The notes beneath the pieces are model-generated. The model ran no database searches, was not told the DNA's origin, and was given only the letters and a program-made list of their open reading frames with translations. Below are positions 2,355-45,984 of a stretch of DNA of 63,239 nt, piece by piece. Source of the stretch: Candidatus Bathyarchaeota archaeon (GTDB taxonomy: Archaea; Thermoproteota; Bathyarchaeia; 40CM-2-53-6); the NCBI GenBank assembly GCA_005881695.1, contig VBBT01000113.1, positions 1 through 63,239 on the forward strand, read 5' to 3'. The number at the start of each line of letters is the position of its first letter. Positions within the stretch are counted from its first letter, which is position 1. The translations under genes and the position numbers were made by a program.

Positions 2355-2915
2355 ATGCTTCCATCTCTGGGGGAGATTCCGAAGAAGAGGAAAGAGCTCG
2401 GGTTGACGCAGTCTAGACTCGCTGTATCGGCTGGAGTGAGCCAGTCGATAATCGCGAAGATAGAGGCTGGTTCGGTGGACCCGTCTTATTCGGTTGTGCA
2501 AAGACTGTTCAGCGCTTTGGAAAGAGCAGGGGTTGAGAGCCCAGCACGTCGCGTAGATGAGCTCATTAGTCGTCCTGTTGTCTCTGTTGCGAGAACGCAG
2601 CTCGTTCGGGACGCTGTTGACTTGATGAGGCGTAGAGGTTATTCGCAGCTTCCAGTTTTAGAAAGTGGACGATGTGTTGGAAGCATTTCGGAGAAGACGA
2701 TACTCGATCGAGCTGCTCGAGGTGAGTCCTTAGAGTCAGTCCTTGCCCTAAGGGTTCGCGAGATCATGGATTCGCCATTGCCGGTGGTCAATAATGATAC
2801 TCCACTCGATCTGGTCCTAGGATTGTTGCAGGGCAACTATGGCGTCCTCGTTTCCAAAGGCGAGAACATCGTTGGTATTCTGACGAAGTCGGATATTCTA
2901 AAAACAAAAAGGTAG
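2355..2915 (+). CDS. XRE-type HTH + CBS-pair transcriptional regulator
   Basis: HTH block LGLTQSRLAVSAGVSQSIIAKIE is followed by a tandem CBS-like region. The ORF track opens at TTG 2277, but ATG 2355 gives the usual N-terminus. Confidence 0.75.
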   Translation: MLPSLGEIPKKRKELGLTQSRLAVSAGVSQSIIAKIEAGSVDPSYSVVQRLFSALERAGVESPARRVDELISRPVVSVARTQLVRDAVDLMRRRGYSQLPVLESGRCVGSISEKTILDRAARGESLESVLALRVREIMDSPLPVVNNDTPLDLVLGLLQGNYGVLVSKGENIVGILTKSDILKTKR

Positions 2916-3102
2916 TTCCAGTAAGGGACCGATTGTAGCGTCCAGTATTGAAGGAACGTTTCAGGCTGTTTCCAGTGACTATTCACTAGGGTAACATCAC
3001 TCCTATTCAAGAACAGCTCATGCTGTGTTCTCCTGTTCGAGATACTATTAGGACAAGTATCCTTGGATGAGCTTGAATGATCACTAGGTATGGGTTGAAC
3101 GA

Positions 3103-4491
3103 ATGCTAGTCCAACTTACCAGTCTTGATCCCATCTGGTCCCTTTTCACTGTCATAGGAATACTCACCCTATTCGGAAAGAAGAAGAAAGACGAGAAAGA
3201 TCACGAAGAGAACGGAGAATCGTCGACTTCAATGCCCACTTCAGCACCCAACTCTCCAGCGGCACCACTCCAAGCTCCTCCTGTTCCCGCAAGTGCTCTT
3301 GCTCCTCCTTCTTCTCCTCCTCCAACTTCTCCGCCAATGAACGCCAACATCTCCTATCAACCGCCGAGAAGCTGGCAGGGTCCTCCGCAGGGGGACGAGG
3401 ACAGCTCGCTGAGCAGACTGCTACAGTCTCTGCTCAGAGATTTGCCATCTGACGCGAACTCGATGGGTGGCGATCAGCCAGGAGCGTTCTCGTTGCAAAG
3501 CACGGCTGAATGGATCCCGCCGAGGGCGACTCCCACAAGTCGGCCGATGATGATAGGTCCAGCCGGAAAGAAAGGCTCGGAGCCAGACAAACCAACCCCG
3601 GCACCACAACCGCCAGTTGCTACTGCGCCTCCTCCACCTCCAGCGCCTCCAGTTCGTTCCGTGAAACCCTCCGCGCCTATGGAGCAGCCAGTAAAGGAAG
3701 CGGTCCAGCCGAAGTTCTATCCTCCGCCCTCAACGGATAAACCGGAGAAACCTGTCAGGGAAGAGGCTCTGAAGCGTCCCAGCCCTCCAAAAGCGTCTCA
3801 AAGCTTTGACCATATCTTCGAGCTTACGAAAGGAAGCCTGGAATCTCCAGGCTTGGTGGTCGTAAACGGCAGCCAAGGATCTGGAAAAACGACTCTCTGC
3901 TCTGGGCTTGCGAACAGTTTTCTGAAGCAAGGAGACCCATGCATGTTCGTTACCTACGATAAAGCGCCTGCTGCGCTTAGGGATCAGATGAAAAAAATGG
4001 GTGCGGATCCGTCAGAGGCTGAGTCTCAATATAGGTTCTTGCTCGTGGACGGGTTTTCGGCCCAGTCCGACTCGTTCAGCTTTGAGCCGTACTACGTTGA
4101 GAAGGCGTTCGACTTCGATTCGATACAGGACGCGCTCATCAAGAACAGTTCCATGTTTATCGGCGAGAAGACGAAGATTCTCTTCGACTCGATCGATCCG
4201 GTGATAGCAAAGGTCGAGTCCAAGGATTTTGTCAAGCGATTAAGCGAGACCTTGGACAAGCTAAGAGACTCGAAAGTGACACTGGTCTTGACAGTGGATC
4301 TTTCGAAGGCACCGAAGGAAGTAGTCAAGTGGCTGGAAGATACCGCGTCGTGCGTTATCGATCTGGACAAGGATGATTCGGATCCGAACGGGCGAGAGCT
4401 GAATGTCAGGAAGCTGAACGGGTCAGCGTCCAAGATAGATACAGAAACTTTCGAGATAGATTCGAGCAAAGGACTCGTATTCGTAAAGTAG
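3103..4491 (+). CDS. Membrane-anchored, proline-rich RecA-superfamily (KaiC/FlaH-like) ATPase
   Basis: N-terminal hydrophobic helix (IWSLFTVIGILTLFG), about 190 aa of P/A/S-rich low complexity, then Walker A GSQGSGKTT and Walker B-like LLVDGF / ILFDSID. Confidence 0.7.
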   Translation: MLVQLTSLDPIWSLFTVIGILTLFGKKKKDEKDHEENGESSTSMPTSAPNSPAAPLQAPPVPASALAPPSSPPPTSPPMNANISYQPPRSWQGPPQGDEDSSLSRLLQSLLRDLPSDANSMGGDQPGAFSLQSTAEWIPPRATPTSRPMMIGPAGKKGSEPDKPTPAPQPPVATAPPPPPAPPVRSVKPSAPMEQPVKEAVQPKFYPPPSTDKPEKPVREEALKRPSPPKASQSFDHIFELTKGSLESPGLVVVNGSQGSGKTTLCSGLANSFLKQGDPCMFVTYDKAPAALRDQMKKMGADPSEAESQYRFLLVDGFSAQSDSFSFEPYYVEKAFDFDSIQDALIKNSSMFIGEKTKILFDSIDPVIAKVESKDFVKRLSETLDKLRDSKVTLVLTVDLSKAPKEVVKWLEDTASCVIDLDKDDSDPNGRELNVRKLNGSASKIDTETFEIDSSKGLVFVK

Positions 4492-6862: not shown

Positions 6863-7201
6863 TTGAGCAACCTTGAGATGAAGGCTCAGAAAGGAGACAC
6901 CGTATCCGTACATTATCTCGGACGATATCCTGGCGGAAAGGTCTTCGACACTTCCATGGAGAAAGAAGCGAAATCCGCAGGCCTCTACAATCCTGCCCGT
7001 GACTACAAGCCTCTACAGGTGACGCTTGGAACTGGAAAGGTGATTCAGGGGTTCGACGAAGCACTGATCGGAATGAAGATCAATGAAGAGAAGGAAGTTG
7101 TGATTCCTCCGGAGAAGGCTTACGGAAAAACAGGGGGTCATCCTATGGCGGGCAAGACTCTGCAGTTCAAACTTAGAGTGACCAACATCAAACGCCAATA
7201 A
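6863..7201 (+). CDS. FKBP-type peptidyl-prolyl cis-trans isomerase
   Basis: GDTVSVHYLGRYPGGKVFDTS and GTGKVIQGFDEALIGMK motifs. Confidence 0.85.
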   Translation: MSNLEMKAQKGDTVSVHYLGRYPGGKVFDTSMEKEAKSAGLYNPARDYKPLQVTLGTGKVIQGFDEALIGMKINEEKEVVIPPEKAYGKTGGHPMAGKTLQFKLRVTNIKRQ

Positions 7202-7463
7202 CGGGAACTGGGCCAGAATTCCTCACAGCGTCTACAACGCGGCCCCTTGACAATTACTCCTGTCCAATGCTGGACATGACACATTCGAAGAGGAGGGCTG
7301 CTACCGTCTCAAGGATGGTACATGGCGATGGCGCTGAGGTCCTACAAGTCAACCCGAATAATACCCTTGATCTTCGTCGACGGGGGAGCCTGAGAAAGTA
7401 GAAAGAGTCAAGGCTCAGATACCCGATGCAACCCACACAAACTGGGATCGGATCGTCGAAAGA

Positions 7464-7913
7464 TTGGAAGACTTGATGAGGCAACCTCCTCAAAACGTCC
7501 CACGGGCTCGGTCACGCCTCGAAGGCCACAAAGGAGCGCCTCTCCCCAAGAAACTCGGAATCAAACCGGGATACACCGTTTCCCTAGTTGGCGCACCCGC
7601 GGGGTTCCGAGAGACCATGGGCGAATTACCGGAAAATGTGGTGCTGCGAGATGGTGTGAGAGCCCAGTCTGACCTAACGCTGTGGTTTGCAAAGTCTCGA
7701 CGAGAGTTGGAAGAGAGACTGCAACACATGAGGCCATTTTCGAAGAAGGCTGGATTATGGATTCTCTGGCCGAAGCAAGCCTCTAAGCTTCAAACGGACT
7801 TAGGACAGCCATTAGTGCGCGAAGCAGGGCTGGCCGCCGGGATGGTTGATTTCAAGATCTGCTCGATCGACAAAAACTGGTCGGGGCTCCGATTCACGCT
7901 AAGAGAGAAGTAA
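7464..7913 (+). CDS. DUF3052-like hypothetical protein
   Basis: 149-aa ORF. The LGIKPG...V.L.GAP pattern resembles DUF3052. Start codon uncertain. Confidence 0.5.
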   Translation: MEDLMRQPPQNVPRARSRLEGHKGAPLPKKLGIKPGYTVSLVGAPAGFRETMGELPENVVLRDGVRAQSDLTLWFAKSRRELEERLQHMRPFSKKAGLWILWPKQASKLQTDLGQPLVREAGLAAGMVDFKICSIDKNWSGLRFTLREK

Positions 7914-8195
7914 GAGTCGTCGGCCTGTCTTCGGAGAGATGGTTTCGGGGCTCCTTGAGGCCTGTATGACCGTGACCTGCGAGAGCCTTAATTGTTCAGA
8001 TGGTCACCGAATGAGTACGAGAATGTGAACTATGCTATTCCGAGCTAGCATCGACCTAGCGTTGGAACCGATGGCTGCCTTCGACGAGTTTGTTGCGGAG
8101 TTGTCCCAAGCCCTTACTCGAGTCGGCATGCGGCTTGAACCGCGGAAGGACGGTAGGATTTCGGAAGGAAAAGTCGAGGTCGGACGTGTTCTATC

Positions 8196-9092
8196 GTGGA
8201 GGCCTGGAAAGAAGTGCTGCTTGAGTGGCGCCAGGCCGACTGGAAGCCTGACGAGGTTACGAAGATGGGGCTGAGGTTTGAATCTGTCCCAGATGGGACG
8301 CGCATCACCATAGAACATGATGAATGGGGGAGTCTTCTGGGCGATAGACGCGGCGAGTTAGCAGGTTGGTTTGCAGGCGAGGTTGCCGCCCCATTATTCC
8401 AGGCGATGGGACCCACCCGGTTCGGAGACTGGCTAACCGACCGTCGAGCTCGGCGACCATCAGGAGCACAGGCGCGTGCTGGATATCGCGATCCCGTTTA
8501 CCACCGTCCCAACTTCAAAGTCATTTTGAAAGCGCTCTCCCTAACCCCTTCCGACTTCTTGCTCGAGGTAGGATGCGGAGGAGGCGCTCTTCTACAAGAG
8601 GCGCTGCGAAGCGGATGTCGGGCAGCGGCCGTTGACCACAGCCCGGAAATGGTCAAGCTCGCGCAAGAGGTCAATCACGATGCTATTAGACAGCGAAGGC
8701 TGGAGGTGCGTGAAGCGGAAGCGGATCAGCTGCCGTTTCCGAACGGGAAGTTCACATGCGCGGCCTTGACCAACGTTTTCGGCTTCCTCCCAGATCCACA
8801 CGCGGTGCTAGTGGAAATCCGACGTGTCCTCGCGAAGGAGGGCCGGCTTGTCCTCTTTACAGTATCTCCTGAGATGCGTGGAACAATAGCAGCGCCCGAA
8901 CCGATGGCGTCTCGGATACATTTCTACAAAGATGAAGAATTGATGAAACTCACACGCGAAGCAGGTTTCGCAGATGTACGAGTTGAACGACCCAACCTTG
9001 AGCCGTTCGCTCGGGAGGCAGGTGTGCCGGAGGAGCACATTCAGGCTTTCTCAGGCCGAGACGGGCAGCTCACCATTGGTCTGAAAACGTAG
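8196..9092 (+). CDS. SRPBCC-like domain + class I SAM-dependent methyltransferase (N-terminus apparently frameshifted, see 8032-8274)
   Basis: Methyltransferase motif I LLEVGCGGGALL. The upstream ORF 8032-8274, in another frame, encodes the missing first half of the SRPBCC domain. Confidence 0.7.
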   Translation: MEAWKEVLLEWRQADWKPDEVTKMGLRFESVPDGTRITIEHDEWGSLLGDRRGELAGWFAGEVAAPLFQAMGPTRFGDWLTDRRARRPSGAQARAGYRDPVYHRPNFKVILKALSLTPSDFLLEVGCGGGALLQEALRSGCRAAAVDHSPEMVKLAQEVNHDAIRQRRLEVREAEADQLPFPNGKFTCAALTNVFGFLPDPHAVLVEIRRVLAKEGRLVLFTVSPEMRGTIAAPEPMASRIHFYKDEELMKLTREAGFADVRVERPNLEPFAREAGVPEEHIQAFSGRDGQLTIGLKT

Positions 9093-9834: not shown

Positions 9835-10857
9835 TTGAAAATCGTCCCGCTTGAACACGATCCGGCTCGAGCCCGTGACTATCTTAACGACAAGAGTTTG
9901 CAGATGGGCCGTATTCTTCCCGTCGGTGACAGTCTACTTGGAGAATACTTTGCAACCGGCAGTAGCTTTGTTCTGCTGAAGGGAAGGGCCATCGACGCGC
10001 TGTTCTCCTACAATGCAGGGCGAGATAAGCAAGTACCCACGGCGAGATTCCGTGTTGTAACCGATTCTATTGTAGGGCTAAGAGAGGTAACTAGGCTTGT
10101 TGAGGAAACCGCTGTTGCGGGCGAGAAGACGGTTCTTCGAACTAATGTTTTCGGATATGACAAGAAGCGGCTCCAGGCATTGAAAGCGTTGGGCTACACC
10201 GTTGGCGCCTCTCTACCGGGAGTCGTCTCACTTGATGGGAGGAGATTTGACTATCACCTTCTCTACAAGGATCTAAGTTTGAGATACAAGTTTGGTGTCC
10301 GAAGAAGTTACGTCAAGCCCGGTATGTACAAGGCAGTAGAAGTTGAAAAAGCAAAGACGCCTAAATTCAAAATCAGAGGCTACAGATCAGAAGATCGGCC
10401 GATCCTCGACAAGTTCGTAACTCACCAGAATGTGATTCGCGGAATCGGCTCTGGGGTCTTTGAGGGTCTATACCCGTGGCCACCGGGCGATTATCAAAGG
10501 AGGGTTGATGCAAAGCAGATTTTTCCGATCGTGTGTGAGGACGAGTTCATTAGGGAACCTGTGGGAGTTGTCGACCTCTTCGGATCTTCCGCAGAAGTCA
10601 TGCAGCATTCGATGGGTACGGGAATCTATGTTAGGGCTGACTACCAAGGGCTTGGTGTTGGGACGATGTTGATGGAGGCTTCGAAGATCCTTGCTACGAG
10701 GTTGCACCTAGGTAGGGTCTGGTTGAGCGTTTTCGAGGGAAACAGCCCCGCGTTGGCGCTGTACCGAAAAACTGGGTTTGAAGAATCCGGAAGGATGCCC
10801 GGGTGGTTGCAGGAGGGGTATGTTGATGAGATCTTCATGACTCTGAAGCTGGACTAG
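9835..10857 (+). CDS. Tandem-GNAT acetyltransferase family protein
   Basis: The C-terminal half has the GNAT core YQGLGVGTMLM...ALYRKTGFEE. TTG start. Confidence 0.7.
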   Translation: MKIVPLEHDPARARDYLNDKSLQMGRILPVGDSLLGEYFATGSSFVLLKGRAIDALFSYNAGRDKQVPTARFRVVTDSIVGLREVTRLVEETAVAGEKTVLRTNVFGYDKKRLQALKALGYTVGASLPGVVSLDGRRFDYHLLYKDLSLRYKFGVRRSYVKPGMYKAVEVEKAKTPKFKIRGYRSEDRPILDKFVTHQNVIRGIGSGVFEGLYPWPPGDYQRRVDAKQIFPIVCEDEFIREPVGVVDLFGSSAEVMQHSMGTGIYVRADYQGLGVGTMLMEASKILATRLHLGRVWLSVFEGNSPALALYRKTGFEESGRMPGWLQEGYVDEIFMTLKLD

Positions 10858-10887: not shown

Positions 10888-11166
10888 TCATCCATTCTTG
10901 AGCAACCACTCCTTTCGAGCAAGACCGCGTTCGGTTAGAGCGTATTGGAACCTGCCGGCTCGGCGGGTCCGACTCAAGAGTCCCTGTCTCCAGTAGCGCA
11001 GGAGAGCCATCTCGACAGCCTTGTCTGTCAACCTGAGCATCGTATCTGCTGCCAAGAGCTTACGAATTTTGAGACTGTCGAACTCCTGTGTTGGTTCGAA
11101 GAGGCCAAGTATGCGGATCTTGAGCTCGTTGTAGTTCATTCTTGCAAGGCGTGGATGGTCGAGCAC
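10888..11166 (-). CDS. Small winged-helix DNA-binding protein
   Basis: 92 aa. The pattern ...LLRYWRQGLLSRTRRAGRFQYALTERG... is typical of a wHTH wing. Divergent from the NurA-HerA operon. Confidence 0.6.
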   Translation of the reverse strand: MLDHPRLARMNYNELKIRILGLFEPTQEFDSLKIRKLLAADTMLRLTDKAVEMALLRYWRQGLLSRTRRAGRFQYALTERGLARKEWLLKNG

Positions 11167-11228
11167 ATAAATCTATTGCGGGAGATGCGATTGTAAGAAT
11201 TCTCTTAGCATATTCTTGAGAGGGCTGT

Positions 11229-11242
11229 GAGTAACACCTTGT
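11229..11242 (+). promoter_or_regulatory. 14-nt direct repeat GAGTAACACCTTGT (copy 1)
   Basis: Exact repeat in the divergent 213-bp intergenic region. Confidence 0.5.
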
Positions 11243-11300
11243 ATGCTTTCCCGAGTGTATTTCTTCGGCGAAACACTTTCACTTTCACTCCCGATTTCCA

Positions 11301-11314
11301 GAGTAACACCTTGT
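11301..11314 (+). promoter_or_regulatory. 14-nt direct repeat GAGTAACACCTTGT (copy 2)
   Basis: Exact repeat 72 bp from copy 1 and about 27 nt upstream of the TATA box at 11341. Confidence 0.5.
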
Positions 11315-11340
11315 CGAAGTTGCTTCGGGACCGAAAATCG

Positions 11341-11348
11341 TTATATAT
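11341..11348 (+). promoter_or_regulatory. TATA box of the 11380 operon
   Basis: TTATATAT begins 39 nt upstream of the TTG start at 11380 (about 31 nt from its 3' end), giving little or no 5' leader. Confidence 0.5.
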
Positions 11349-11379
11349 CTACAACGGAGAGGACTCGGGCTGAGTAATA

Positions 11380-11928
11380 TTGTCCGACTTGGAAGTAGTT
11401 CAGAGTTCAGTTCAGTCCAGCCAACCTAGCGGGACAATAGAAGTGACCGTAAGACACAACGGATCAGAGACCAAGGTCATTGGAAACCCTGAGAATGTTG
11501 TTCGCGAACTTGTCATCTTCTTCTCGAAAGCCTACCCGGCGCTTGATCTAGCTTCGAAGCTCGTACTCTCTGTTGACAGCATGGAGTTCCTGCAAAACTG
11601 TGCAGGGGTCCTCGCCTTCTCTCCCGAGGGTCTTGTGATCTTGAAAGATACGACGACGCTGAAGGATAGGGAGCTTATGATGCTTCACGTCGCCGGAGCA
11701 CGCATGTTCTACTTGATGGGAAAGAAAGAGAACGATTCTATCTCATTGGACGAACTGGCAAAGATTACCGGCCGCGTTACCGGGACTATAGCAGGCCGGC
11801 TCAGCGAACTAGTCAGAGAACAACTCATCGAAAGAGTCGGAAAGGGTTCCTACAGGCTCACCACGATGGGACAGCGAGTGGTCATCCAGACACTGATGCC
11901 GAAAGCTGTGCAGTTGCCGGAGAGGTAG
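11380..11928 (+). CDS. Uncharacterised protein with C-terminal wHTH-like domain (paralogue 1)
   Basis: 182 aa. Alignable along its length with the next ORF (blocks LASKL, SPEG/TPEG, GSYRLT/GNYRLS). Confidence 0.65.
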   Translation: MSDLEVVQSSVQSSQPSGTIEVTVRHNGSETKVIGNPENVVRELVIFFSKAYPALDLASKLVLSVDSMEFLQNCAGVLAFSPEGLVILKDTTTLKDRELMMLHVAGARMFYLMGKKENDSISLDELAKITGRVTGTIAGRLSELVREQLIERVGKGSYRLTTMGQRVVIQTLMPKAVQLPER

Positions 11929-11934
11929 AGAGCG

Positions 11935-12471
11935 ATGACAGAGCGTCCGAAGATCAAGGTTCAGATCGAATGGGGAGACATCAAGCACACTGTCGAAGGT
12001 GACCTGGAGACTGTAGTGCAGGAGGTTATGCGGTTCGCGGCACAGGTCTTGCCTAACTATTCACTTGCATCGAAGCTAACGTTCTCTCCCGACTACTCTT
12101 CGATGGTGGACGATCTCTCCGAGACAGTCAAACTGACACCAGAGGGTGAGGCTGTCTTTCTGAAACCGGAAATGTCAGCCGAACAATCGATCGCCCTCGT
12201 CCTGCTAGCCACCCGGGTTGCCCATGCAGTTGGCACTCGACCTAGCGTCGATATGAGCCCAGAGAATATCAGCAAGGCTATCGGAAAATCTGTCAAAACA
12301 GTCCGCAACACGCTTGCGATGATGGGGAAGACCGGTATCGTCGAGCGGACCAATGAGGGAAACTATCGGCTATCAATTCAGGGAATCCGCAAGTCGCACG
12401 AGATCGCGAGAAGCGTAACAGCTCGTGCCGCCGTGTCCCAGCCTGAAAGAAAGGTGACAGCGCCAGGATGA
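11935..12471 (+). CDS. Uncharacterised protein with C-terminal wHTH-like domain (paralogue 2)
   Basis: 178 aa, paralogous to 11380-11928. The ATG lies 6 nt after the upstream TAG. Confidence 0.65.
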   Translation: MTERPKIKVQIEWGDIKHTVEGDLETVVQEVMRFAAQVLPNYSLASKLTFSPDYSSMVDDLSETVKLTPEGEAVFLKPEMSAEQSIALVLLATRVAHAVGTRPSVDMSPENISKAIGKSVKTVRNTLAMMGKTGIVERTNEGNYRLSIQGIRKSHEIARSVTARAAVSQPERKVTAPG

Positions 12472-12493
12472 TACTAGAGAGGGTGCGGGGACA

Positions 12494-12517
12494 GGCGGGA
12501 GAGGGGGATCTCCCGCC
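12494..12517 (+). other. Intercistronic 8-bp GC hairpin embedded in a G-quadruplex-type G-tract run
   Basis: GGCGGGAG-agggggat-CTCCCGCC. The G-tracts at 12481-83, 12487-90, 12497-99 and 12503-07 fit a G3+N1-7 pattern. Confidence 0.6.
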
Positions 12518-12538
12518 CAATACTGGGGGAATCTAACC

Positions 12539-13645
12539 TTGCTCCACCGCACCCAGGAACTAACTGAACCGCTAGCACAATTAAAAAGCATACCGGAAGA
12601 GCTGCAACATCCAATACCCGAAGCACTCCTCCAGCTCTCGACAAAATCAATGCAATCGCTACGCGGGTCCACACTCAACCCACGCACTGTGTCCCTCGTT
12701 GACATGGGACTGGACGATGGAGACTCAGACGAGCAGCTCGAAATCGGCGCATCATCAATATCAATGGGTTTGAAGCGCAGCCCAATCAATCCATTGAGAG
12801 AATCGGTTCCAATCGCGGCGTGCGACGCATCCAGCGTCAAGATAGGCGAAACCGAAACTGGAATGATATTCGCAATTCGAGCCGTTGCCGTTTGGAGACA
12901 ACCTGACAGGATCGCTTTCACACGCTGGGGACCCTTGCTGTTCCACATTCCCAACTCCGACGGCCAACAAGAAAAGTACCGAGATGACGACTCTCGGGCC
13001 TTCGGCGGGCTATCGGTCAAGACCCTACGGGTTCTGACCAAGCTGAGGAATCATGTGGAACGCTGGGTCCAGGAAGAGCTAGCCTTCTCAGTCAAAGACG
13101 GGGTTGTCCTGTTCGACGGTTCATTGACTGCGGGGACGCCTGACAATCCTTCCAGTAGAGTCCAACGAATCCTTTCCACAGCCCGCAACAACAACAGTAT
13201 CGTTATCGCTCTCTCGAAATCAACGCAGCTTACAGTTGGCGGAAAGAATATTCTCGGCTTCTTCGACGCCGAAAAAATCCCCCACATCATCGACATAACA
13301 TCTGTTGTCGAGAACGAGTATCCCGCGTATCCGATCAGATTCCTCGGACGAGTTTGTGTCTCGAAACTTTCACCGGATGGGTTCCTATTCCGCACCGATA
13401 TTGACCGGGATGCCGATGAACAACAAGCATTGGTTGCGCTTGGCCGAATCGCAGGAACCGACGTTATCTTCCATGGCTACCCTGAGACATTGAGGATCGC
13501 CCACATCTTCAGCACGTTCACCGCTAACGAGATCCTCGCAGTCCAGCGATTCGTTGCCAGTAACCATCACGTTAGTCTTCAGGCCCGGCCGAACCTTCGA
13601 CGGTCATTGTTCGGACCCTTTGGAACCAGCAGGTACGTGGCCTAG
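12539..13645 (+). CDS. nurA: NurA-like nuclease
   Basis: 368 aa. Motifs IAACDASS and VLFDGSL are characteristic of the NurA domain. Immediately upstream of a HerA-type ATPase. Confidence 0.65.
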   Translation: MLHRTQELTEPLAQLKSIPEELQHPIPEALLQLSTKSMQSLRGSTLNPRTVSLVDMGLDDGDSDEQLEIGASSISMGLKRSPINPLRESVPIAACDASSVKIGETETGMIFAIRAVAVWRQPDRIAFTRWGPLLFHIPNSDGQQEKYRDDDSRAFGGLSVKTLRVLTKLRNHVERWVQEELAFSVKDGVVLFDGSLTAGTPDNPSSRVQRILSTARNNNSIVIALSKSTQLTVGGKNILGFFDAEKIPHIIDITSVVENEYPAYPIRFLGRVCVSKLSPDGFLFRTDIDRDADEQQALVALGRIAGTDVIFHGYPETLRIAHIFSTFTANEILAVQRFVASNHHVSLQARPNLRRSLFGPFGTSRYVA

Positions 13646-13651
13646 ACGCGA

Positions 13652-15070
13652 ATCTACCGGAAGGAAGCTGACGAAGTCCAGCTCATAGCCTTCCCTGACG
13701 AGCATGTTCAGAAGGGCGACTATTTTGTCATCGAGGACCCAGCGCAGTCGAGAGGACTCCTCGTCCAAGCGATAGACTTGCAGTACGCCAACGTTCCAGG
13801 GGTCCTAGAGGATATTCTCAGAGACGTAATGACTGATGGGGAACTTGCGGGGGAAGATGTGGACCCATTGAACATTTCCAGCCAGGTGGACGCGTTGAAG
13901 GATACGAGACTGGCGGTCTGCAAGATCCGCGGAACAATCGCCCAAGACGGAAGCCTATCACCCAGCACGTCCTGGTTGCCTTCGCGGACATCATCAAAGA
14001 TCCGGCCCTACGCCGTCAACCGGCTGATAATGAATGGTGGAAAAATGCCAGTCAAGTTGGGACACAACGATGGCGAGCCGATAAGCGTGGACGCCAGCGG
14101 ACTTGATGGCGGTCTGAACATAATCACTGGAAGAAAAGGCTCAGGCAAGTCTCACCTTGCGAAACTACTCCTCCTCTCCATGGCAGGATGGGGTGCGCCA
14201 TGCATCGTTCTGGACGTAAACGGAGAATACATCAACCTTCACAAATCGAAGGACGGACGACAATCATCTGCGCGGCTGACAGTTCTAGCGCCGAGAAGCG
14301 GCCTAAACTTCTCTATGTCCAAACTCGGGCTGAGAACGGTAGCAGGGGTCTTGAGTCATGCCCTGGATCTGCCGGCGACTTCGTCCAAAGTCTTCACCAC
14401 TATCTGGAAGGATCTTGAGGCTCGGGGAGATCTGACTCTCCCTACTTTGATCCAAGCAGTGCAGTCGTGGAGTTGCCATGACAGTGTCCGCGAAGCTCTG
14501 ACTTCCAGACTCCAGGTTTTGATGGAATCGGGATTGTTTGACGAGGCAAACCCGTTGACGGAAGAGCGAATTCTTCACACTATCGAGGGAGGCGGGGTCC
14601 TTGTGGTTAATCTGAAGAATCAGAGCCAGATCGTCCGACGTATACTTGTCGAGATCTTTCTCGGAGAACTGACCAAGATTCTCTCCTCTAACTGGCTCAA
14701 GGCTGCGTTTCTTTTCGCGGAGGAAGCGCACTTGTACTTGCGGGATACTTACTGGGACGATATTGTTACAAGGATGAGGCATATTGGATTGTTCACCACG
14801 TTCATCACGAACCAGCCGGACACTGTTCAGGAGGCGATCTACAGGCAGGCGGACAATGTGTTCATCTTCAACTTCACAAACGAGCACGATATCGAGGCTA
14901 TTGGCAAGGTGGCGAAGGCGGACAGCGACACGATACGTTACCTCGTCAGAGGAATACCTACCAGACGCTGCTTGCTGCTCGGCAATGTTGTCAAGGACCT
15001 ACCTCTGATGGTCGACGTGGAACAGTTGGATGTCAGAACGATGGGCGAGACGCGACTCTTCTTCTCTTAG
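13652..15070 (+). CDS. herA: HerA-like (FtsK/HerA superfamily) hexameric ATPase
   Basis: Walker A GRKGSGKSH, Walker B LFAEEAH, and FITNQP. The first canonical start is TTG 13778, but a HAS-barrel-like sequence (IYRKEADEVQLIAFPDEHVQKGDYFVIEDP) is encoded in frame from 13646, so the start is assigned provisionally to ATC 13652. Confidence 0.7.
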   Translation: MYRKEADEVQLIAFPDEHVQKGDYFVIEDPAQSRGLLVQAIDLQYANVPGVLEDILRDVMTDGELAGEDVDPLNISSQVDALKDTRLAVCKIRGTIAQDGSLSPSTSWLPSRTSSKIRPYAVNRLIMNGGKMPVKLGHNDGEPISVDASGLDGGLNIITGRKGSGKSHLAKLLLLSMAGWGAPCIVLDVNGEYINLHKSKDGRQSSARLTVLAPRSGLNFSMSKLGLRTVAGVLSHALDLPATSSKVFTTIWKDLEARGDLTLPTLIQAVQSWSCHDSVREALTSRLQVLMESGLFDEANPLTEERILHTIEGGGVLVVNLKNQSQIVRRILVEIFLGELTKILSSNWLKAAFLFAEEAHLYLRDTYWDDIVTRMRHIGLFTTFITNQPDTVQEAIYRQADNVFIFNFTNEHDIEAIGKVAKADSDTIRYLVRGIPTRRCLLLGNVVKDLPLMVDVEQLDVRTMGETRLFFS

Positions 15071-15200
15071 TGTGAGCAAGGGCGCGCCACTCTTTCGTAG
15101 GAACTCGGTCTAACAAGTCCCGCATCCCTGCTCGACGTTTCTTTCTGGCAAGAACTCGCCTGAACTCTACCCTGAGGCGTGCGCCGGCCCGCAGTGTGGT

Positions 15201-16766
15201 CTACTCTCTGGCCATCTGCACTAGGTCGGACGGCTGCTTCTTACTGTTCTCGGAGAGGCTCATTATTCCTCCAGTGAGACTCTGACCCTGTATTCCTTTG
15301 GCGGCAAAGATCTGCGCAACACGCAATGACGTGCCTCCTGCCATACACACTAACAGGACTTTTCGATTGTCCTTGGGAAGGACATTCATGATATTATCGG
15401 GTATCTTCTCAGTTGAGATCAACATTTGGACGTCTGAGGCTCTTGCGACTTTGATCTTGCTCTCATCGCATCCAAGGGACGAGGCGACGAGTTTGATGCC
15501 ATCCTCCTTCGGGACGAACATGCCATGGGTCCATAGAACCTCGCCATAATCGGCTACGCTAGAGCTGGCCTGTGGAAGAGTTACTTCGAGAGGAGGGGGC
15601 GCCTGAGCGATTGTTCCGAGAGTGCTCCGGTACTTGTCGATACCGTCGGCGAGCATTACGACAAACTTGTCTCCGACGCCATAGTTGAGCATCTGTAAAC
15701 AAGCGTAGAGCGCTAGCGCACTGCTCTCGCCAATGTCGTAGCCTCTTCCGACGAAGAAGCGGAGGACTCGCCTGGCTGGCTCGAAGTCCACTTCGTGCTG
15801 TCCCGCGTATAGGGCTGGATCATAGAATCTGAGGCCCAAGGCTTTGTCCTTGGTCCGTATTCCTGCAACGTCTTGGTTGTTCAGCGGGAAAATTAGGTGG
15901 ACGGATTTCTTGCTATGTTTTGTCTGGAGGTATTTGCTAATGCCGGCTGACGTGCCTCCGGTTCCAAACGCGGAGATTATTTTGAAGTCAGCTAGTGAGA
16001 GACCAATGTCTCCTAGCTGCTGGTCTATCTCCGGCGCTGTTACCCTCTCGTGTGACTTGACGTTCAGCTCGTTATCATATTGTTCGGGGCAGAAGCCTCC
16101 GTAAACCTTGGCCAGCACCTTTGCCAGGTTGATCACGTCTTGTCTCGCGAGGAGACCTTCGATCTCGGCTCGCGACTTGTTGAACTGCGCTGCGTCCAGC
16201 CCGAGATCCGCTAGCTGTTCCCGGACATTACTCGCTGTTGCCTTGGCAATAACTAAGTTCTGATCAAGAGCCAATCCTGGTGCTGGGCAAATGTCGATGT
16301 CCAGGTCCACCGTCTTGACTGAGTTCCTGTTCAGTTCATCTAGGACCCCGCTCTGGAGCTTCCTTGAAACTAGGAAAATGACATTGATGCCGATCTTTTC
16401 CAGCATTCCGAGGGCGATACCGAAATTGCCGGAGGTTGCCTCGAAGACTGTTTGACCAGTCCTTAGTCTGCCGGAAGCAATCGCATCCTCGATTATTTCA
16501 ACAGCTGGGCGAACTTTGACCGAGCCACCTATGATCTTCGAGTCGAACTTTCCGAAGACCCGGATGTTCTTTGCGGAAATTTCGAGGCCATATTCGACAC
16601 GAGCGCACTCGATGAGGGGAGCCGTCAGATCCTCCAAGGGCGTTGGATTGACGAAAGCCCTGCTTCCGTCTCTCTCGATAAGGTGGGGGACTTTGTTCTT
16701 TATCTGGCTCTGGAATCGCCTGAGAAGTGCTTCGTCAACTTGGGGCTTGGCCGTGGACTTTTGCAT
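15201..16766 (-). CDS. PLP-dependent cysteine-synthase-fold enzyme fused to a C-terminal rhodanese domain
   Basis: GGSVKVRPA (candidate PLP lysine), TSGNFGIALG and GTGGT motifs. The C-terminus has LLVCMAGGTSLR, a rhodanese-like active-site loop. Confidence 0.7.
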   Translation of the reverse strand: MQKSTAKPQVDEALLRRFQSQIKNKVPHLIERDGSRAFVNPTPLEDLTAPLIECARVEYGLEISAKNIRVFGKFDSKIIGGSVKVRPAVEIIEDAIASGRLRTGQTVFEATSGNFGIALGMLEKIGINVIFLVSRKLQSGVLDELNRNSVKTVDLDIDICPAPGLALDQNLVIAKATASNVREQLADLGLDAAQFNKSRAEIEGLLARQDVINLAKVLAKVYGGFCPEQYDNELNVKSHERVTAPEIDQQLGDIGLSLADFKIISAFGTGGTSAGISKYLQTKHSKKSVHLIFPLNNQDVAGIRTKDKALGLRFYDPALYAGQHEVDFEPARRVLRFFVGRGYDIGESSALALYACLQMLNYGVGDKFVVMLADGIDKYRSTLGTIAQAPPPLEVTLPQASSSVADYGEVLWTHGMFVPKEDGIKLVASSLGCDESKIKVARASDVQMLISTEKIPDNIMNVLPKDNRKVLLVCMAGGTSLRVAQIFAAKGIQGQSLTGGIMSLSENSKKQPSDLVQMARE

Positions 16767-18261: not shown

Positions 18262-19236
18262 TTGCGAGTTTGGACTCAGTCCGAAATCTCCGTTCTTAGG
18301 AAGTTATGGCGCTCGATGACTGATCGAGAACTGTCCGCCCTTTTTGGTAGAACCCTAGAGGCAGTTCGCTCCCATCGTCAAGATTTACTCGGTCCCCGTT
18401 GGACTTCTCCCTCGAAACGTTGGGAAGGCAAACCGGGCATAGTCTTCGAGAAAGACTTAGTCCGAGAGTATCTTAATGGTTCGAGCCAATCTCTGATCGC
18501 AGAGAAGTTTCATATCGAATGGCGCAAGCTTAGGCAAGTACTCCTTTCTCACAGGGTCCCAATTCGCGGGAAGTCGCAGCAAATGTTCATGGACCTTCAT
18601 GGGAGATCTCCTAAGATCAGGCTTCGGCTCAACCGCTCCAAGCTCTACATCATTTTCGCGATGTTTGGTGACGGTCTTCGACCCACGAGCCAGACGAAAC
18701 AAAGAACTCACATAATTGGAATCGCTGCTGGAAAGGACCGAGACTTCGCGGAGAACTGGATCTCCGAATTCGAACAAGAATACTCAGTCCGACCGGCTCT
18801 CAGAACAGTTGGAATCAACAATATCCAAGCCTCGATTTCCTCTCTCGACATCTGGAATGATCTGCACAGTTACGCCTCTTTCGGAACCCGATCCTGGGGT
18901 CTACGAAAAGAAGCTCTCGGGCACTTGACATCCGACGAAGCGTCTCGGACCGACGTGGGATACGGCCTGAGGGGCTTCTTCGATGCAGACGGTTCTGTAA
19001 AATACCAAGCCAAAAGATCTTCAAGACAAGTCACCGTCACCTCGGTTAACCCGGAAGGTCTACGGCAGGTCTCCACTCTCCTTGGCAAAATTGGACTCCG
19101 ACACAGCGTCTACGAAGATAGCATCGCCATATTCGGTCGGAGAAACCTCTTGGATTATCAGAGAATGATTGGGTTCGGAATCGCTAGAAAGAACGAAGCG
19201 TTAAATAACATGATCTCGACTTTTCGAGTTAGATGA
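18262..19236 (+). CDS. Free-standing LAGLIDADG-family protein with N-terminal HTH modules
   Basis: Two LAGLIDADG-type motifs (IIFAMFGDGL and LRGFFDADGSV). The N-terminus has Myb/SANT-like and resolvase-like HTH segments. Confidence 0.7.
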   Translation: MRVWTQSEISVLRKLWRSMTDRELSALFGRTLEAVRSHRQDLLGPRWTSPSKRWEGKPGIVFEKDLVREYLNGSSQSLIAEKFHIEWRKLRQVLLSHRVPIRGKSQQMFMDLHGRSPKIRLRLNRSKLYIIFAMFGDGLRPTSQTKQRTHIIGIAAGKDRDFAENWISEFEQEYSVRPALRTVGINNIQASISSLDIWNDLHSYASFGTRSWGLRKEALGHLTSDEASRTDVGYGLRGFFDADGSVKYQAKRSSRQVTVTSVNPEGLRQVSTLLGKIGLRHSVYEDSIAIFGRRNLLDYQRMIGFGIARKNEALNNMISTFRVR

Positions 19237-43949: not shown

Positions 43950-44019
43950 TGAAACCGCTTTTTGAAACGCATTATTGAAACGCAAGTTGAAACCGGTTCT
44001 TGAAACTGCTCTTGAAAAC
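43950..44019 (+). repeat. Tandem array of six TGAAAC-core repeats, period 12-13 bp
   Basis: TGAAAC occurs at 43950, 43963, 43976, 43988 and 44001, TGAAAAC at 44013, and a further CGAAAC at 44040. Confidence 0.8.
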
Positions 44020-44157: not shown

Positions 44158-45984
44158 TTGTGTGGAATATTCGGCTGCGTTCTCCACGACGGTAAAGAAG
44201 CCGCTCCGCTCATCCACGCCGCCCTTAAGCGGTTGGAATACCGAGGGTATGACTCGGTCGGCGAGGTAACGATCTCTAATGGAACTCTTACTGTAAAGAA
44301 GGATAGTGGACGACTTGATGAGGTCCACGCCAGGTACAACCTCGACCTCTTGCCCGGACCCGTGGGCATTGGACATACCCGCTGGGCAACTCATGGCCGA
44401 CCAGTCAAAGAGAACTCTCACCCGCTGGTCGATTGCAAATCCCGGATCGCCGTCGTCCACAACGGGATAATAGAAAATTATCTCGATCTCAAACGCGAGC
44501 TCGAAACCAAAGGGCACCGGTTCGCCTCGAGAACGGACACGGAAGTTGTCCCGCACATGGTCGAGGAATATCTCAGCCAGGGGCTCAGTCTCGAAGAAGC
44601 GTTTCGGAAAACCATCAACCGGCTGGAAGGAGCCTACTCCGTCGTTCTGACCAGCGTTGAGAAGCCGAAGACGATTCTCTGCGCCCGCCAGGAAAGCCCT
44701 CTCGTCCTCGGACTGGGAGATGGAGAATACTACTGCGCCAGCGACATAGCCGCCTTCCTACCCCTGACTCGAAAAGCGTTGATTCTGGAGGAAGGGGAAA
44801 TGGCCGTTCTCGATCCAAACGGGATTAGGATCCTGAAAGCGAAGAACGGGGTTGCCGTAAAGAGAGATACTGTCACGGTAACATGGGACCCGGAGTCCGC
44901 TAAGAAACAGGGTTTCCGACATTTCATGCTCAAGGAGATCCACGAGCAAGTCCATACGATAAGGGACGCGATGAGAACGCACGAGATCTACTATGATCTT
45001 CTCTCCAGCAAGCTGATGCAGGCCGATAAAGTGTTCATCGTCGCTTGCGGAACATCATATCACGCCGGTCTCGTCGGTGGACAGGCCCTAATGAAACTGG
45101 CAGGGATGAACGTCAGGGTCGTGGTAGCATCCGAGTTCTCAGACGAAGCCCTTGACCTCGTTGACTCGAAAACGGCGATCCTTGCAGTAAGCCAGTCCGG
45201 TGAGACTATGGACACTCTTAACGCGGTCAGGGACGCCAAGACGAAAGGAGCTTCGATTGTCAGCGTAACGAACGTCTTGGGTTCCACGCTGATGCGCTTG
45301 TCCGATGTCTATATCGGGCAGAATTCGGGACCCGAGATTGGGGTCGCAGCAACAAAGACCTTCACGTCACAGGTTACCGTTCTCCTCAGACTCGCGATCG
45401 CGATCGGTAGGAAGAAGGGTGAAGTCTCATCGAAAGAGATTAGCGAACTGGAAGAAGCTCTACACCGAACCCCGGCCCTGATTCAGAATCTGTTGAATAC
45501 TCGGGTGGAGGAAGTGAAGAAGATTGCAGAGAGCTGCAGCGGCGCGTCGAGCATCTGTTTCCTCGGGAGAGGAATCAGCGTGCCAACCTCCTTGGAAGGA
45601 CGATTGAAACTCCTGGAGCTGAGTTACATCCCCGCGATCGCGTATCCTGCGGGCGAGAGCAAACACGGCTTCATCGCCCTGATCGAAGAAGGATTCCCGA
45701 CGGTATTCGTAGCACCGAAGGACGATACTCACAAGAAAATAATCGGTAACATCATGGAGATGAAGGCCCGCGGAGCAAGAATAATCTCGATCATTGAAGA
45801 GGGAGACGAAGAGATCAGAAACCTATCCGACGACGTGATAGAAATACCCGAATCCCTCCCATCCCTCGCCACCCCAATCGTCTACGTTGTTCCGCTACAG
45901 CTCCTAGCGTACTACATGTCGGTAATTCTAGGCCATGACCCTGACTATCCGAGAAATCTGGCCAAGAGCGTCACGGTAGAATAG
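44158..45984 (+). CDS. glmS: Glutamine--fructose-6-phosphate aminotransferase
   Basis: N-terminal MCGIFG (TTG start followed by Cys), two SIS domains and a C-terminal ...KSVTVE. Confidence 0.95.
   Translation: MCGIFGCVLHDGKEAAPLIHAALKRLEYRGYDSVGEVTISNGTLTVKKDSGRLDEVHARYNLDLLPGPVGIGHTRWATHGRPVKENSHPLVDCKSRIAVVHNGIIENYLDLKRELETKGHRFASRTDTEVVPHMVEEYLSQGLSLEEAFRKTINRLEGAYSVVLTSVEKPKTILCARQESPLVLGLGDGEYYCASDIAAFLPLTRKALILEEGEMAVLDPNGIRILKAKNGVAVKRDTVTVTWDPESAKKQGFRHFMLKEIHEQVHTIRDAMRTHEIYYDLLSSKLMQADKVFIVACGTSYHAGLVGGQALMKLAGMNVRVVVASEFSDEALDLVDSKTAILAVSQSGETMDTLNAVRDAKTKGASIVSVTNVLGSTLMRLSDVYIGQNSGPEIGVAATKTFTSQVTVLLRLAIAIGRKKGEVSSKEISELEEALHRTPALIQNLLNTRVEEVKKIAESCSGASSICFLGRGISVPTSLEGRLKLLELSYIPAIAYPAGESKHGFIALIEEGFPTVFVAPKDDTHKKIIGNIMEMKARGARIISIIEEGDEEIRNLSDDVIEIPESLPSLATPIVYVVPLQLLAYYMSVILGHDPDYPRNLAKSVTVE

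Follow-up and report, generated by a model that had tools for sequence, protein, structure and literature searches.

A conserved NurA-HerA operon with paralogous winged-helix proteins and no mre11-rad50 linkage in Bathyarchaeia

In characterised archaea HerA and NurA act as a DNA translocase-nuclease that resects DNA ends for recombination, and how the pair is recruited to DNA and restrained is unresolved even in the systems linked to Mre11-Rad50 (PMC7690668, PMC12977600). What HerA and NurA might do, and with which partners, when they are encoded apart from mre11 and rad50 is the question raised by a locus at positions 10888-15070 of a 63-kb stretch of a Bathyarchaeota contig (the whole stretch, of about 52% G+C, is called the window below). 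The locus is a naturally occurring variant that encodes the helicase-nuclease together with a compact, new family of putative DNA-binding partners in place of Mre11-Rad50. Bathyarchaeia are among the most abundant uncultured archaea of soils and sediments, and the close homologues of the window proteins come from soil metagenome bins labelled Candidatus Bathyarchaeota or Bathyarchaeia. An earlier reading of the letters and open reading frames (ORFs) by themselves, the sequence-only reading, had proposed an uncharacterised DNA-processing or defence module. In this study, we report that the locus is chromosomal, is inherited vertically among housekeeping genes under very strong purifying selection, has a probable dedicated regulator and operator, and is not linked to mre11-rad50. 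The proposal of a conserved DNA-processing module is retained, and its lean towards defence is not supported in view of the vertical inheritance, the constraint and the lack of mobile relatives. At a probability of roughly one half, we favour the reading that the operon encodes a vertically inherited housekeeping HerA-NurA DNA-processing machine, in which two paralogous winged helix-turn-helix (wHTH) proteins, FAM-a and FAM-b, are hetero-oligomeric DNA-binding subunits serving as loader, targeting device or gatekeeper.

All five ORFs of the sequence-only reading were recovered, four of them co-directional on the forward strand. These are FAM-a (ORF1, 11380-11928, 182 aa), FAM-b (ORF2, 11935-12471, 178 aa, beginning 6 nt past the ORF1 stop), a NurA-family nuclease (ORF3, 12539-13645, 368 aa) and a HerA-family ATPase of hexameric type (ORF4, 13646-15070, originally called as a 430-aa ORF at 13778-15070). 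The fifth is a small wHTH ORF on the reverse strand (10888-11166, 92 aa). Since the gaps between the co-directional genes are 6, 67 and 0 nt, and a single conserved block resembling an archaeal promoter precedes ORF1, the four genes are taken to form one operon.

The assignment of ORF4 to the HerA family, made from the motifs GRKGSGKSH and LFAEEAH, was borne out by a match to Pfam PF01935 (DUF87/HerA) of 47.2 bits (cutoff 23.2, E=3.9e-12), a domain present in all relatives. The Walker A motif GRKGSGKSH and the Walker B motif (F)LFAEEAH are invariant across the alignment of the subfamily, and a profile built from it matched Sulfolobus solfataricus HerA (4D2I) at 7e-12 over the span of the ATPase and, within the C-terminal third alone, the Sir2-HerA ATPase (8j4u) at 5e-12. 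The protein missed the NCBIfam cutoffs for the double-strand-break-repair equivalogs NF040819 (10.5 bits, cutoff 970) and NF040937 (17 bits, cutoff 800) and scored 36.5 bits against the anti-phage HerA (cutoff 800). Because it stands so far below all NCBIfam HerA equivalog cutoffs, and shares only about 20% identity with a HerA from a canonical, mre11-linked operon, the window HerA is, by its sequence, a member of a distinct HerA subfamily. Its N-terminus of about 110 aa is conserved, beta-rich and in frame, and has no Pfam HAS-barrel match. One homologue search with HerA returned only proteins of 98-100% identity, which shows conservation and not diversity.

The 430-aa length given to ORF4 did not stand. 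HerA proteins of the relatives are 474-486 aa long and start directly after the NurA stop. In the window the codon at this position, 13646, is ACG, in place of the ATG, GTG or TTG found there in 32 other loci, and the first canonical start is a TTG at 13778. Because the relatives start at 13646 and the 44 codons 5' of the TTG are in frame and identical to the relatives in protein sequence, the HerA gene is, on these alignments, 13646-15070, and the 430-aa ORF is an artefact of a lost start codon. Either the start codon was mutated very recently or the ACG is a sequencing or base-call error. In all loci NurA and HerA are adjacent, the NurA stop being followed directly by the HerA start position, and the two genes are probably translationally coupled.

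ORF3 contains the NurA-type motifs AACDASS and VLFDGSL noticed earlier. Its score against Pfam NurA (PF09376), 19.1 bits, falls slightly short of the cutoff of 21, with positions 3-249 of the 254 in the model aligned; among 11 diverse members of its subfamily, 10 matched Pfam NurA at E<=0.01, the best at 3e-9. The window protein also matched a Geothermarchaeales protein (26.5% identity, E=1e-21) from locus L027, L-numbers denoting the related loci retrieved for comparison; this protein has a strong precomputed NurA match and is named NurA by NCBI. No NurA chain was found among PDB sequences using the single protein, a 3-sequence profile or the 11-sequence profile, so that membership rests on the family-level Pfam match. 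Residues D96, E104, D193 (of DGSL), K227 and the stretch Y314-P-E-T-L-R-I-A-H322 are invariant in the 11 diverse members. The acidic and histidine motifs of NurA (D; E; D-G-S/T-L; Y-P-x-x-L-x-x-A-H) are thereby kept, and we take D96, E104, D193 and H322 to be the counterparts of the residues that form the active site in NurA structures. A further conserved feature of the subfamily is an extension of about 90 aa at the N-terminus.

ORF1 and ORF2, described earlier as paralogues of an unrecognised family, share 25% identity over 167 aa (BLASTP, E=9e-16) and carry the motifs LASKL, [ST]PEG and G-[SN]-YRL-[TS]. No Pfam, NCBIfam or PADLOC family was found above its cutoff, and only sub-cutoff wHTH matches were obtained, all in the C-terminal half. 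Searching 1.84 billion cluster representatives with a profile gave 300 clusters of this family (FAM) at E<=1e-3 and 151 at E<=1e-10; they are mostly of 160-175 aa, match over their full length, and bear database names such as 'hypothetical protein' or those of generic regulators. An AlphaFold2 model of FAM-a from a 39-sequence alignment reached a predicted local distance difference test score (pLDDT) of 84 and a predicted template modelling score of 0.71, an earlier model on a shallow alignment having reached a pLDDT of 69. In the better model the N-domain consists of two beta-hairpins (20-35 and 78-87) that enclose a long helix (37-51), a loop and another helix (67-74); a disordered 15-residue tail precedes this domain, and a canonical wHTH (96-160) and a C-terminal helix follow it. 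A Foldseek search with FAM-a against PDB and BFVD gave nothing at E<=1e-3; weaker matches (template modelling score about 0.35-0.7) cover the wHTH half only. The top 'APC2/cullin' matches were rejected on root-mean-square deviations of 22-25 A. The N-terminal halves are acidic (isoelectric point 4.6-4.9) and the wHTH halves basic (10-11). FAM is thus an undescribed family combining an acidic N-domain without a fold match and a basic wHTH, and no description of the family or the operon was found in the literature searched.

Some FAM members are fused to other domains. A Ser/Thr protein kinase is followed by two FAM-core copies in P0257, and FAM is followed by DUF488 in P0375. Two further proteins, P0321 and P0364, join a FAM module to an N-terminal domain of 190 aa that has a PD...E-x-K-like pattern and no Pfam match; a guess that this domain is a PD-(D/E)xK nuclease ('PDGVI...YELKSG' pattern) found no support in Pfam and was dropped.

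Conservation of the gene order was examined in 113 related loci collected by three routes, namely exact-protein look-ups, a scan of GTDB species genomes with an ORF1/ORF2 alignment, and a scan of JGI metagenomes. The last, made with an alignment of the HerA subfamily, found 543 or more relatives; 80 of these were retained. Loci were annotated using custom hidden Markov models for FAM, this NurA subfamily and this HerA subfamily. Two strong FAM genes lie directly upstream of NurA-HerA, on the same strand, in 68 of the 70 loci with at least 1.3 kb of upstream DNA, and the order is therefore kept far beyond this genome. The two exceptions come from one Geothermarchaeales organism, where FAM lies 1.35 kb upstream with three small opposite-strand genes between. 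Altogether the block is kept in more than 70 loci of Bathyarchaeia and relatives such as Geothermarchaeales, with HerA identities to the window from 99% down to 41%. In distant contexts that were retrieved independently, HerA is 41-54% and ORF1 29-44% identical to the window; L024, L109 and L111 share the arrangement, as do L027 and L110 apart from small insertions. On the 1.69-Mb contig of L024, genes of 165 and 173 aa are the best matches of ORF1 (44%) and ORF2 (39%), and NurA and HerA are 41% and 53% identical to those of the window.

The number of FAM genes varies between clades. Most clades outside that of the window have a third, divergent FAM paralogue of 166-170 aa upstream of the small wHTH gene (9161-9661 in L001, 6384-6896 in L024), a position occupied in the window's clade by a GNAT gene (340 aa, 9835-10857). 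In L099, L100, L106 and L107 four FAM genes stand in a row and the small wHTH gene is absent.

A 1.25-kb insertion separates the FAM-a and FAM-b orthologues in L011 (2619-3901) and L043 (about 2903-4149). Its product is a TnpB/IS605-OrfB protein of 404 aa (Pfam OrfB_IS605, Cas12f1-like_TNB and HTH_OrfB_IS605), encoded in the orientation of the operon. Several operon-carrying contigs or proteins bear bacterial labels (L015, L021, P0203 and P0449; Dormiibacterota, 'bacterium', Sulfotelmatobacter and [Eubacterium] cellulosolvens), which are probably binning or contamination errors.

The absence of mre11 and rad50 from the 63 kb was confirmed using Mre11, the Rad50 N-terminus and canonical HerA and NurA of another archaeon as queries; no Mre11, Rad50 or second HerA or NurA was found in the window, the sole match being ORF4 itself, and a greedy ORF survey showed no Rad50-sized ORF there. 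Neither gene is attached to the operon. Within 10 kb on either side in the fetched loci no mre11 or rad50 was found, except for an Mre11-like gene in L101 that lies 2 kb off across two opposite-strand genes.

The locus resembles the Mre11-Rad50-HerA-NurA resection system of Sulfolobus, Pyrococcus and Thermococcus in its adjacent, homologous NurA and HerA, their Walker A/B motifs and acidic and His residues, a HerA profile that aligns with SsoHerA 4D2I, and constraint at the level of an essential gene. It differs in having no mre11 or rad50 in the operon or, bar L101, within 10 kb, in drawing both enzymes from divergent subfamilies, in hosts that appear mesophilic (soil, sediment) and not thermophilic, and in its extra genes, which encode a probable dedicated regulator and FAM wHTH paralogues, two to four in number. 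The stand-alone NurA-HerA of the bacteria Deinococcus radiodurans and Thermus thermophilus also lacks linkage to Mre11-Rad50, and has been proposed as a minimal resection machinery (PMC12977600; PMC7776575). It is, however, a two-gene unit without FAM-type partners, and the Thermus genes are dispensable (PMC7776575), whereas the operon described here is under very strong constraint.

This constraint was measured as the ratio of nonsynonymous to synonymous substitution rates (dN/dS) by the NG86 method between the window and L005. Values were 0.012 for HerA, 0.020 for NurA, 0.023 for ORF2, 0.051 for ORF1 and 0.137 for the small wHTH gene, compared with 0.034 for the neighbouring PyrK-like gene, 0.068 for the PALP-domain enzyme and 0.080 for the GNAT gene. 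Values for ORF2 spanned 0.023-0.036 overall. HerA, NurA and ORF2 are thus more constrained than the neighbouring metabolic genes. Protein identities to the window within the soil clade fall from HerA (83-99%) through ORF2 (77-98%) and NurA (72-96%) to ORF1 (60-93%), with 53-89% for the small wHTH protein.

Between the window and L006, NurA and HerA show a synonymous divergence of about 0.8 and ORF2 one of 0.5 (segment 12471-15070); for ORF1 and the flanking GNAT and PALP genes, p125 and the PyrK-like gene it is only 0.23-0.35. This higher divergence relative to the flanks suggests that the ORF2-NurA-HerA segment was replaced by homologous recombination in the lineage of the window or of L006.

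The spacer shared by the operon and the divergent small wHTH gene showed an ordered arrangement of conserved elements. The repeated 14-mers of the sequence-only reading proved to be a deeply conserved putative operator tied to that gene. The 14-mer GAGTAACACCTTGT occurs at 11229-11242 and 11301-11314, and its core, GTAACACCTTG, constitutes predicted operator box 1 (11231-11241, forward strand) and box 2 (11303-11313, forward strand), the latter 72 bp past box 1, with the ORF1 TATA following after about 30 nt. Between the boxes, the forward-strand block CGAAACACTTTCACTTTCACTCCC (11269-11292), with ACTTTC in tandem, is near-invariant in soil-clade loci whose ORF1 shares only 57-65% identity, and the spacer alignment shows the footprint CGAAAYACTTTCACTTTCAYTCCC there. 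A block at 11325-11349 (forward strand), TCGGGACCGAAAATCGTTATATATC, with the footprint TCGGGACCGAAAA-N2-GTTATATATC, may be the archaeal transcription factor B recognition element and TATA box (BRE/TATA) of the operon, judging from the archaeal promoter consensus. Since 30 nt separate the end of this block from the ORF1 start, the mRNA would be expected to have a short leader or none.

The window has two occurrences of the box core, GTAACAYCTWG, where 0.05 would be expected, and in about 1 Mb of fetched loci the core is confined to this spacer. More than 60 loci have two copies 72-73 bp apart, with conserved spacing to either gene; loci of the L024-type clade retain the second copy in inverted orientation. 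Of 66 informative loci, 60 have the small wHTH gene upstream of the operon and divergent from it, and the boxes were present in all 60 loci with the gene and in none of the 6 without it (60/60 versus 0/6, the entry for L052 having been corrected from a motif scan of the loci). The encoded protein has an isoelectric point of 10.5 and a weak match to the Pfam PaaX wHTH; a kinship to the FAM wHTH, given a probability of 15% by hhalign, is not claimed. The divergent gene noted earlier is real, and its length of 92 aa is probably an overestimate: homologues align only from Met10 on, starting M-x-YN[EQ]LK, so that the gene most likely starts at the ATG at 11139 and encodes 83 aa. The simplest reading is that this basic 83-aa protein is probably the box-binding regulator of both divergent promoters; it would bind both GTAACAYCTWG boxes and regulate the operon, in a direction that we can only infer. 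Together with the two boxes, the small wHTH gene offers an unusually clear cis-regulatory logic for an uncultured archaeon and could serve as a model archaeal operator.

Under the favoured reading, HerA would by homology be a ring ATPase translocating on DNA, and NurA would degrade the strand fed to it. FAM-a and FAM-b would pair through their acidic N-domains into a hetero-oligomer, the basic wHTH domains of which would bind DNA and load, target or restrain HerA-NurA. The FAM oligomer would in this way take over at least part of the role of Mre11-Rad50 in the canonical system. A role as partner of the enzymes, rather than regulator of its own promoter, is argued for by the constraint on FAM-b, which equals that on the enzymes, by the split into acidic and basic domains, and by the presence of two to four paralogues per locus, more than autoregulation would need. 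A targeting or adaptor function also fits the fusions to Ser/Thr kinase and DUF488 enzymes, and FAM is not needed to explain the operator because the boxes track the small wHTH gene. From these observations we infer a physical FAM-HerA-NurA complex and a DNA substrate on which it would act. If FAM proteins are loaders or gatekeepers, the locus would provide a directly testable handle on HerA-NurA control, and a function for a family of about 300 clusters.

Several observations weigh against this reading. Many of the loci are closely related, so that their counts exceed what independent observations would give. A canonical start codon is missing from the HerA gene of the window itself. The FAM wHTH resembles that of regulators (MarR, IclR, Csa3, AbiEi), and a purely regulatory role is possible. 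Finally, in L026, L112 and L113, from one AT-rich archaeal lineage, three overlapping FAM genes precede an LSM gene, and a NurA-HerA pair of this subfamily is not found next to them, so that FAM can function without NurA-HerA in cis; in L026 this FAM triple operon (7013-8513) lies 4 kb from a canonical rad50-nurA-herA-mre11 cluster (12341-16513) located downstream on the other strand.

A more specific form of the loader reading, which we advance tentatively, is that the FAM paralogues (two to four per genome) form a hetero-oligomeric sensor of DNA ends or lesions that recruits and gates HerA-NurA. They would then be a new, Mre11-Rad50-independent loader with which Bathyarchaeia and relatives start the resection of double-strand breaks, and the same adaptor would have been reused with the kinase and DUF488.

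Among the rival explanations, the one that survives best, unlikely as we consider it, is that FAM-a and FAM-b are ordinary heterodimeric wHTH transcription factors, for example of a DNA-damage regulon, co-transcribed with a self-sufficient HerA-NurA as in Deinococcus and Thermus. The only recognisable part of FAM is indeed a regulator-type wHTH: the C-terminal 80 aa of FAM-a and FAM-b resemble regulators of the Csa3/CasR and MarR/IclR types, with PADLOC CARF3/Csa3 matches of 3e-6 to 3e-4. The N-domain of about 75 aa (hairpin, two helices, hairpin), unlike that of Csa3/CasR-type regulators, is not a CARF domain and has no PDB or BFVD fold match at E<=1e-3. The free-standing FAM operon of the L026, L112 and L113 lineage would suit transcription factors, and the conserved spacer block CACTTTCACTTTCAC could be a FAM site. 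However, the locus already has a small wHTH gene whose presence tracks the boxes, and the dN/dS of 0.023 for FAM-b equals that of the enzymes. Linkage to NurA-HerA persists down to about 41% HerA identity, and GTAACAYCTWG was found nowhere else in the 63-kb window or the approximately 1 Mb of loci, giving no sign of a regulon for that motif.

A function in defence against viruses or plasmids, with FAM sensing foreign DNA or infection and HerA-NurA degrading it as the effector, is disfavoured and appears distinctly improbable. HerA combined with a nuclease is a recurrent immune architecture, and FAM is fused to a kinase and to DUF488, fusions of a kind often met in conflict systems. The anti-phage Sir2-HerA and DUF4297-HerA systems likewise pair a HerA-family ATPase with an effector enzyme, and the former is reached by the 8j4u profile match; in the present operon, however, the effector is NurA and not Sir2 or DUF4297, the context is neither a defence island nor a mobile element, and the score against the NCBIfam anti-phage HerA lies far below its cutoff of 800. 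HerA/NurA pairs with a history of co-evolution with type III CRISPR-Cas have been described from Crenarchaea and Aigarchaea (PMC6546367). Like the pair described here, these are additional pairs not linked to Mre11, in archaea of the same broad group, Thermoproteati; unlike them, the loci examined here have no cas genes or arrays nearby, and the PADLOC model for that HerA gave 20 bits.

Searches of defence and mobile-element collections pointed the same way. With PADLOC-DB 2.0, proposed earlier as a check, HerA matched mad8 (6.8e-13) and several HerA models (>=3.6e-10) in the generic P-loop region only, NurA had no meaningful match, and FAM matched only the wHTH parts of CARF/Csa3 and AbiEi models, so that no system was matched beyond generic HerA P-loop similarity. 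No relatives of the HerA subfamily were found in 2.9 million IMG/VR contigs, INPHARED phages or PLSDB plasmids, and none of ORF1 in PLSDB. Neighbour lists of the examined loci showed no cas genes, integrases or other defence genes; in the window, no CRISPR-like array was detected and no cas gene appeared in the ORF survey. A mobile or arms-race defence module is therefore disfavoured by purifying selection exceeding that on housekeeping neighbours, by a position beside PyrK and PALP that is stable over deep divergence, by the lack of relatives in mobile elements and by the generic nature of the PADLOC matches.

Least probable, in our view, is a role in segregation, resolution or replication-fork processing instead of end resection, with HerA as an FtsK-like pump steered to chromosomal sites by the FAM wHTH. 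Points in its favour are the very high conservation, an SMC gene 3.4 kb downstream in L001, the membership of HerA in the FtsK-HerA superfamily, the lack of FtsK in archaea and a cell-division role for archaeal HerA that is still under discussion (PMC12977600). On the other side, NurA is invariably encoded alongside HerA and keeps its catalytic residues, apart from the operon's own operator no motif marking a specific chromosomal target was found, and an SMC gene is close by in a single context.

The surroundings of the operon are metabolic. The sequence-only reading had described its neighbours as accessory-type genes including a tRNA. No tRNA was found in the whole window with ARAGORN, and Rfam gave no matches at the gathering score; the ORF survey showed a window dominated by biosynthetic genes (trp, shikimate, pyrimidine and F420, with glmS- and purA-like genes in addition). 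A PALP-domain enzyme and a PyrK-like gene flank HerA, and one or both recur in L020, L024, L110 and L111. Other neighbours across the loci belong to metabolism and translation and the like (GatD/E, ELP3, SMC, UPP synthase, tRNA synthetase and similar). Directly past the PyrK-like gene, at 18262-19236 on the forward strand, lies a stand-alone gene of 324 aa that has a homing-endonuclease-like domain (LAGLIDADG_3, 42 bits) and looks like a recent insertion, the closest relative, L002, having short unrelated genes at this place. Further along, a 13-nt tandem repeat, TGAAACCGCTTAT (43950-44010, 4.8 copies, 72% matches), is located in the intergenic region upstream of a glmS-like gene at 44158.

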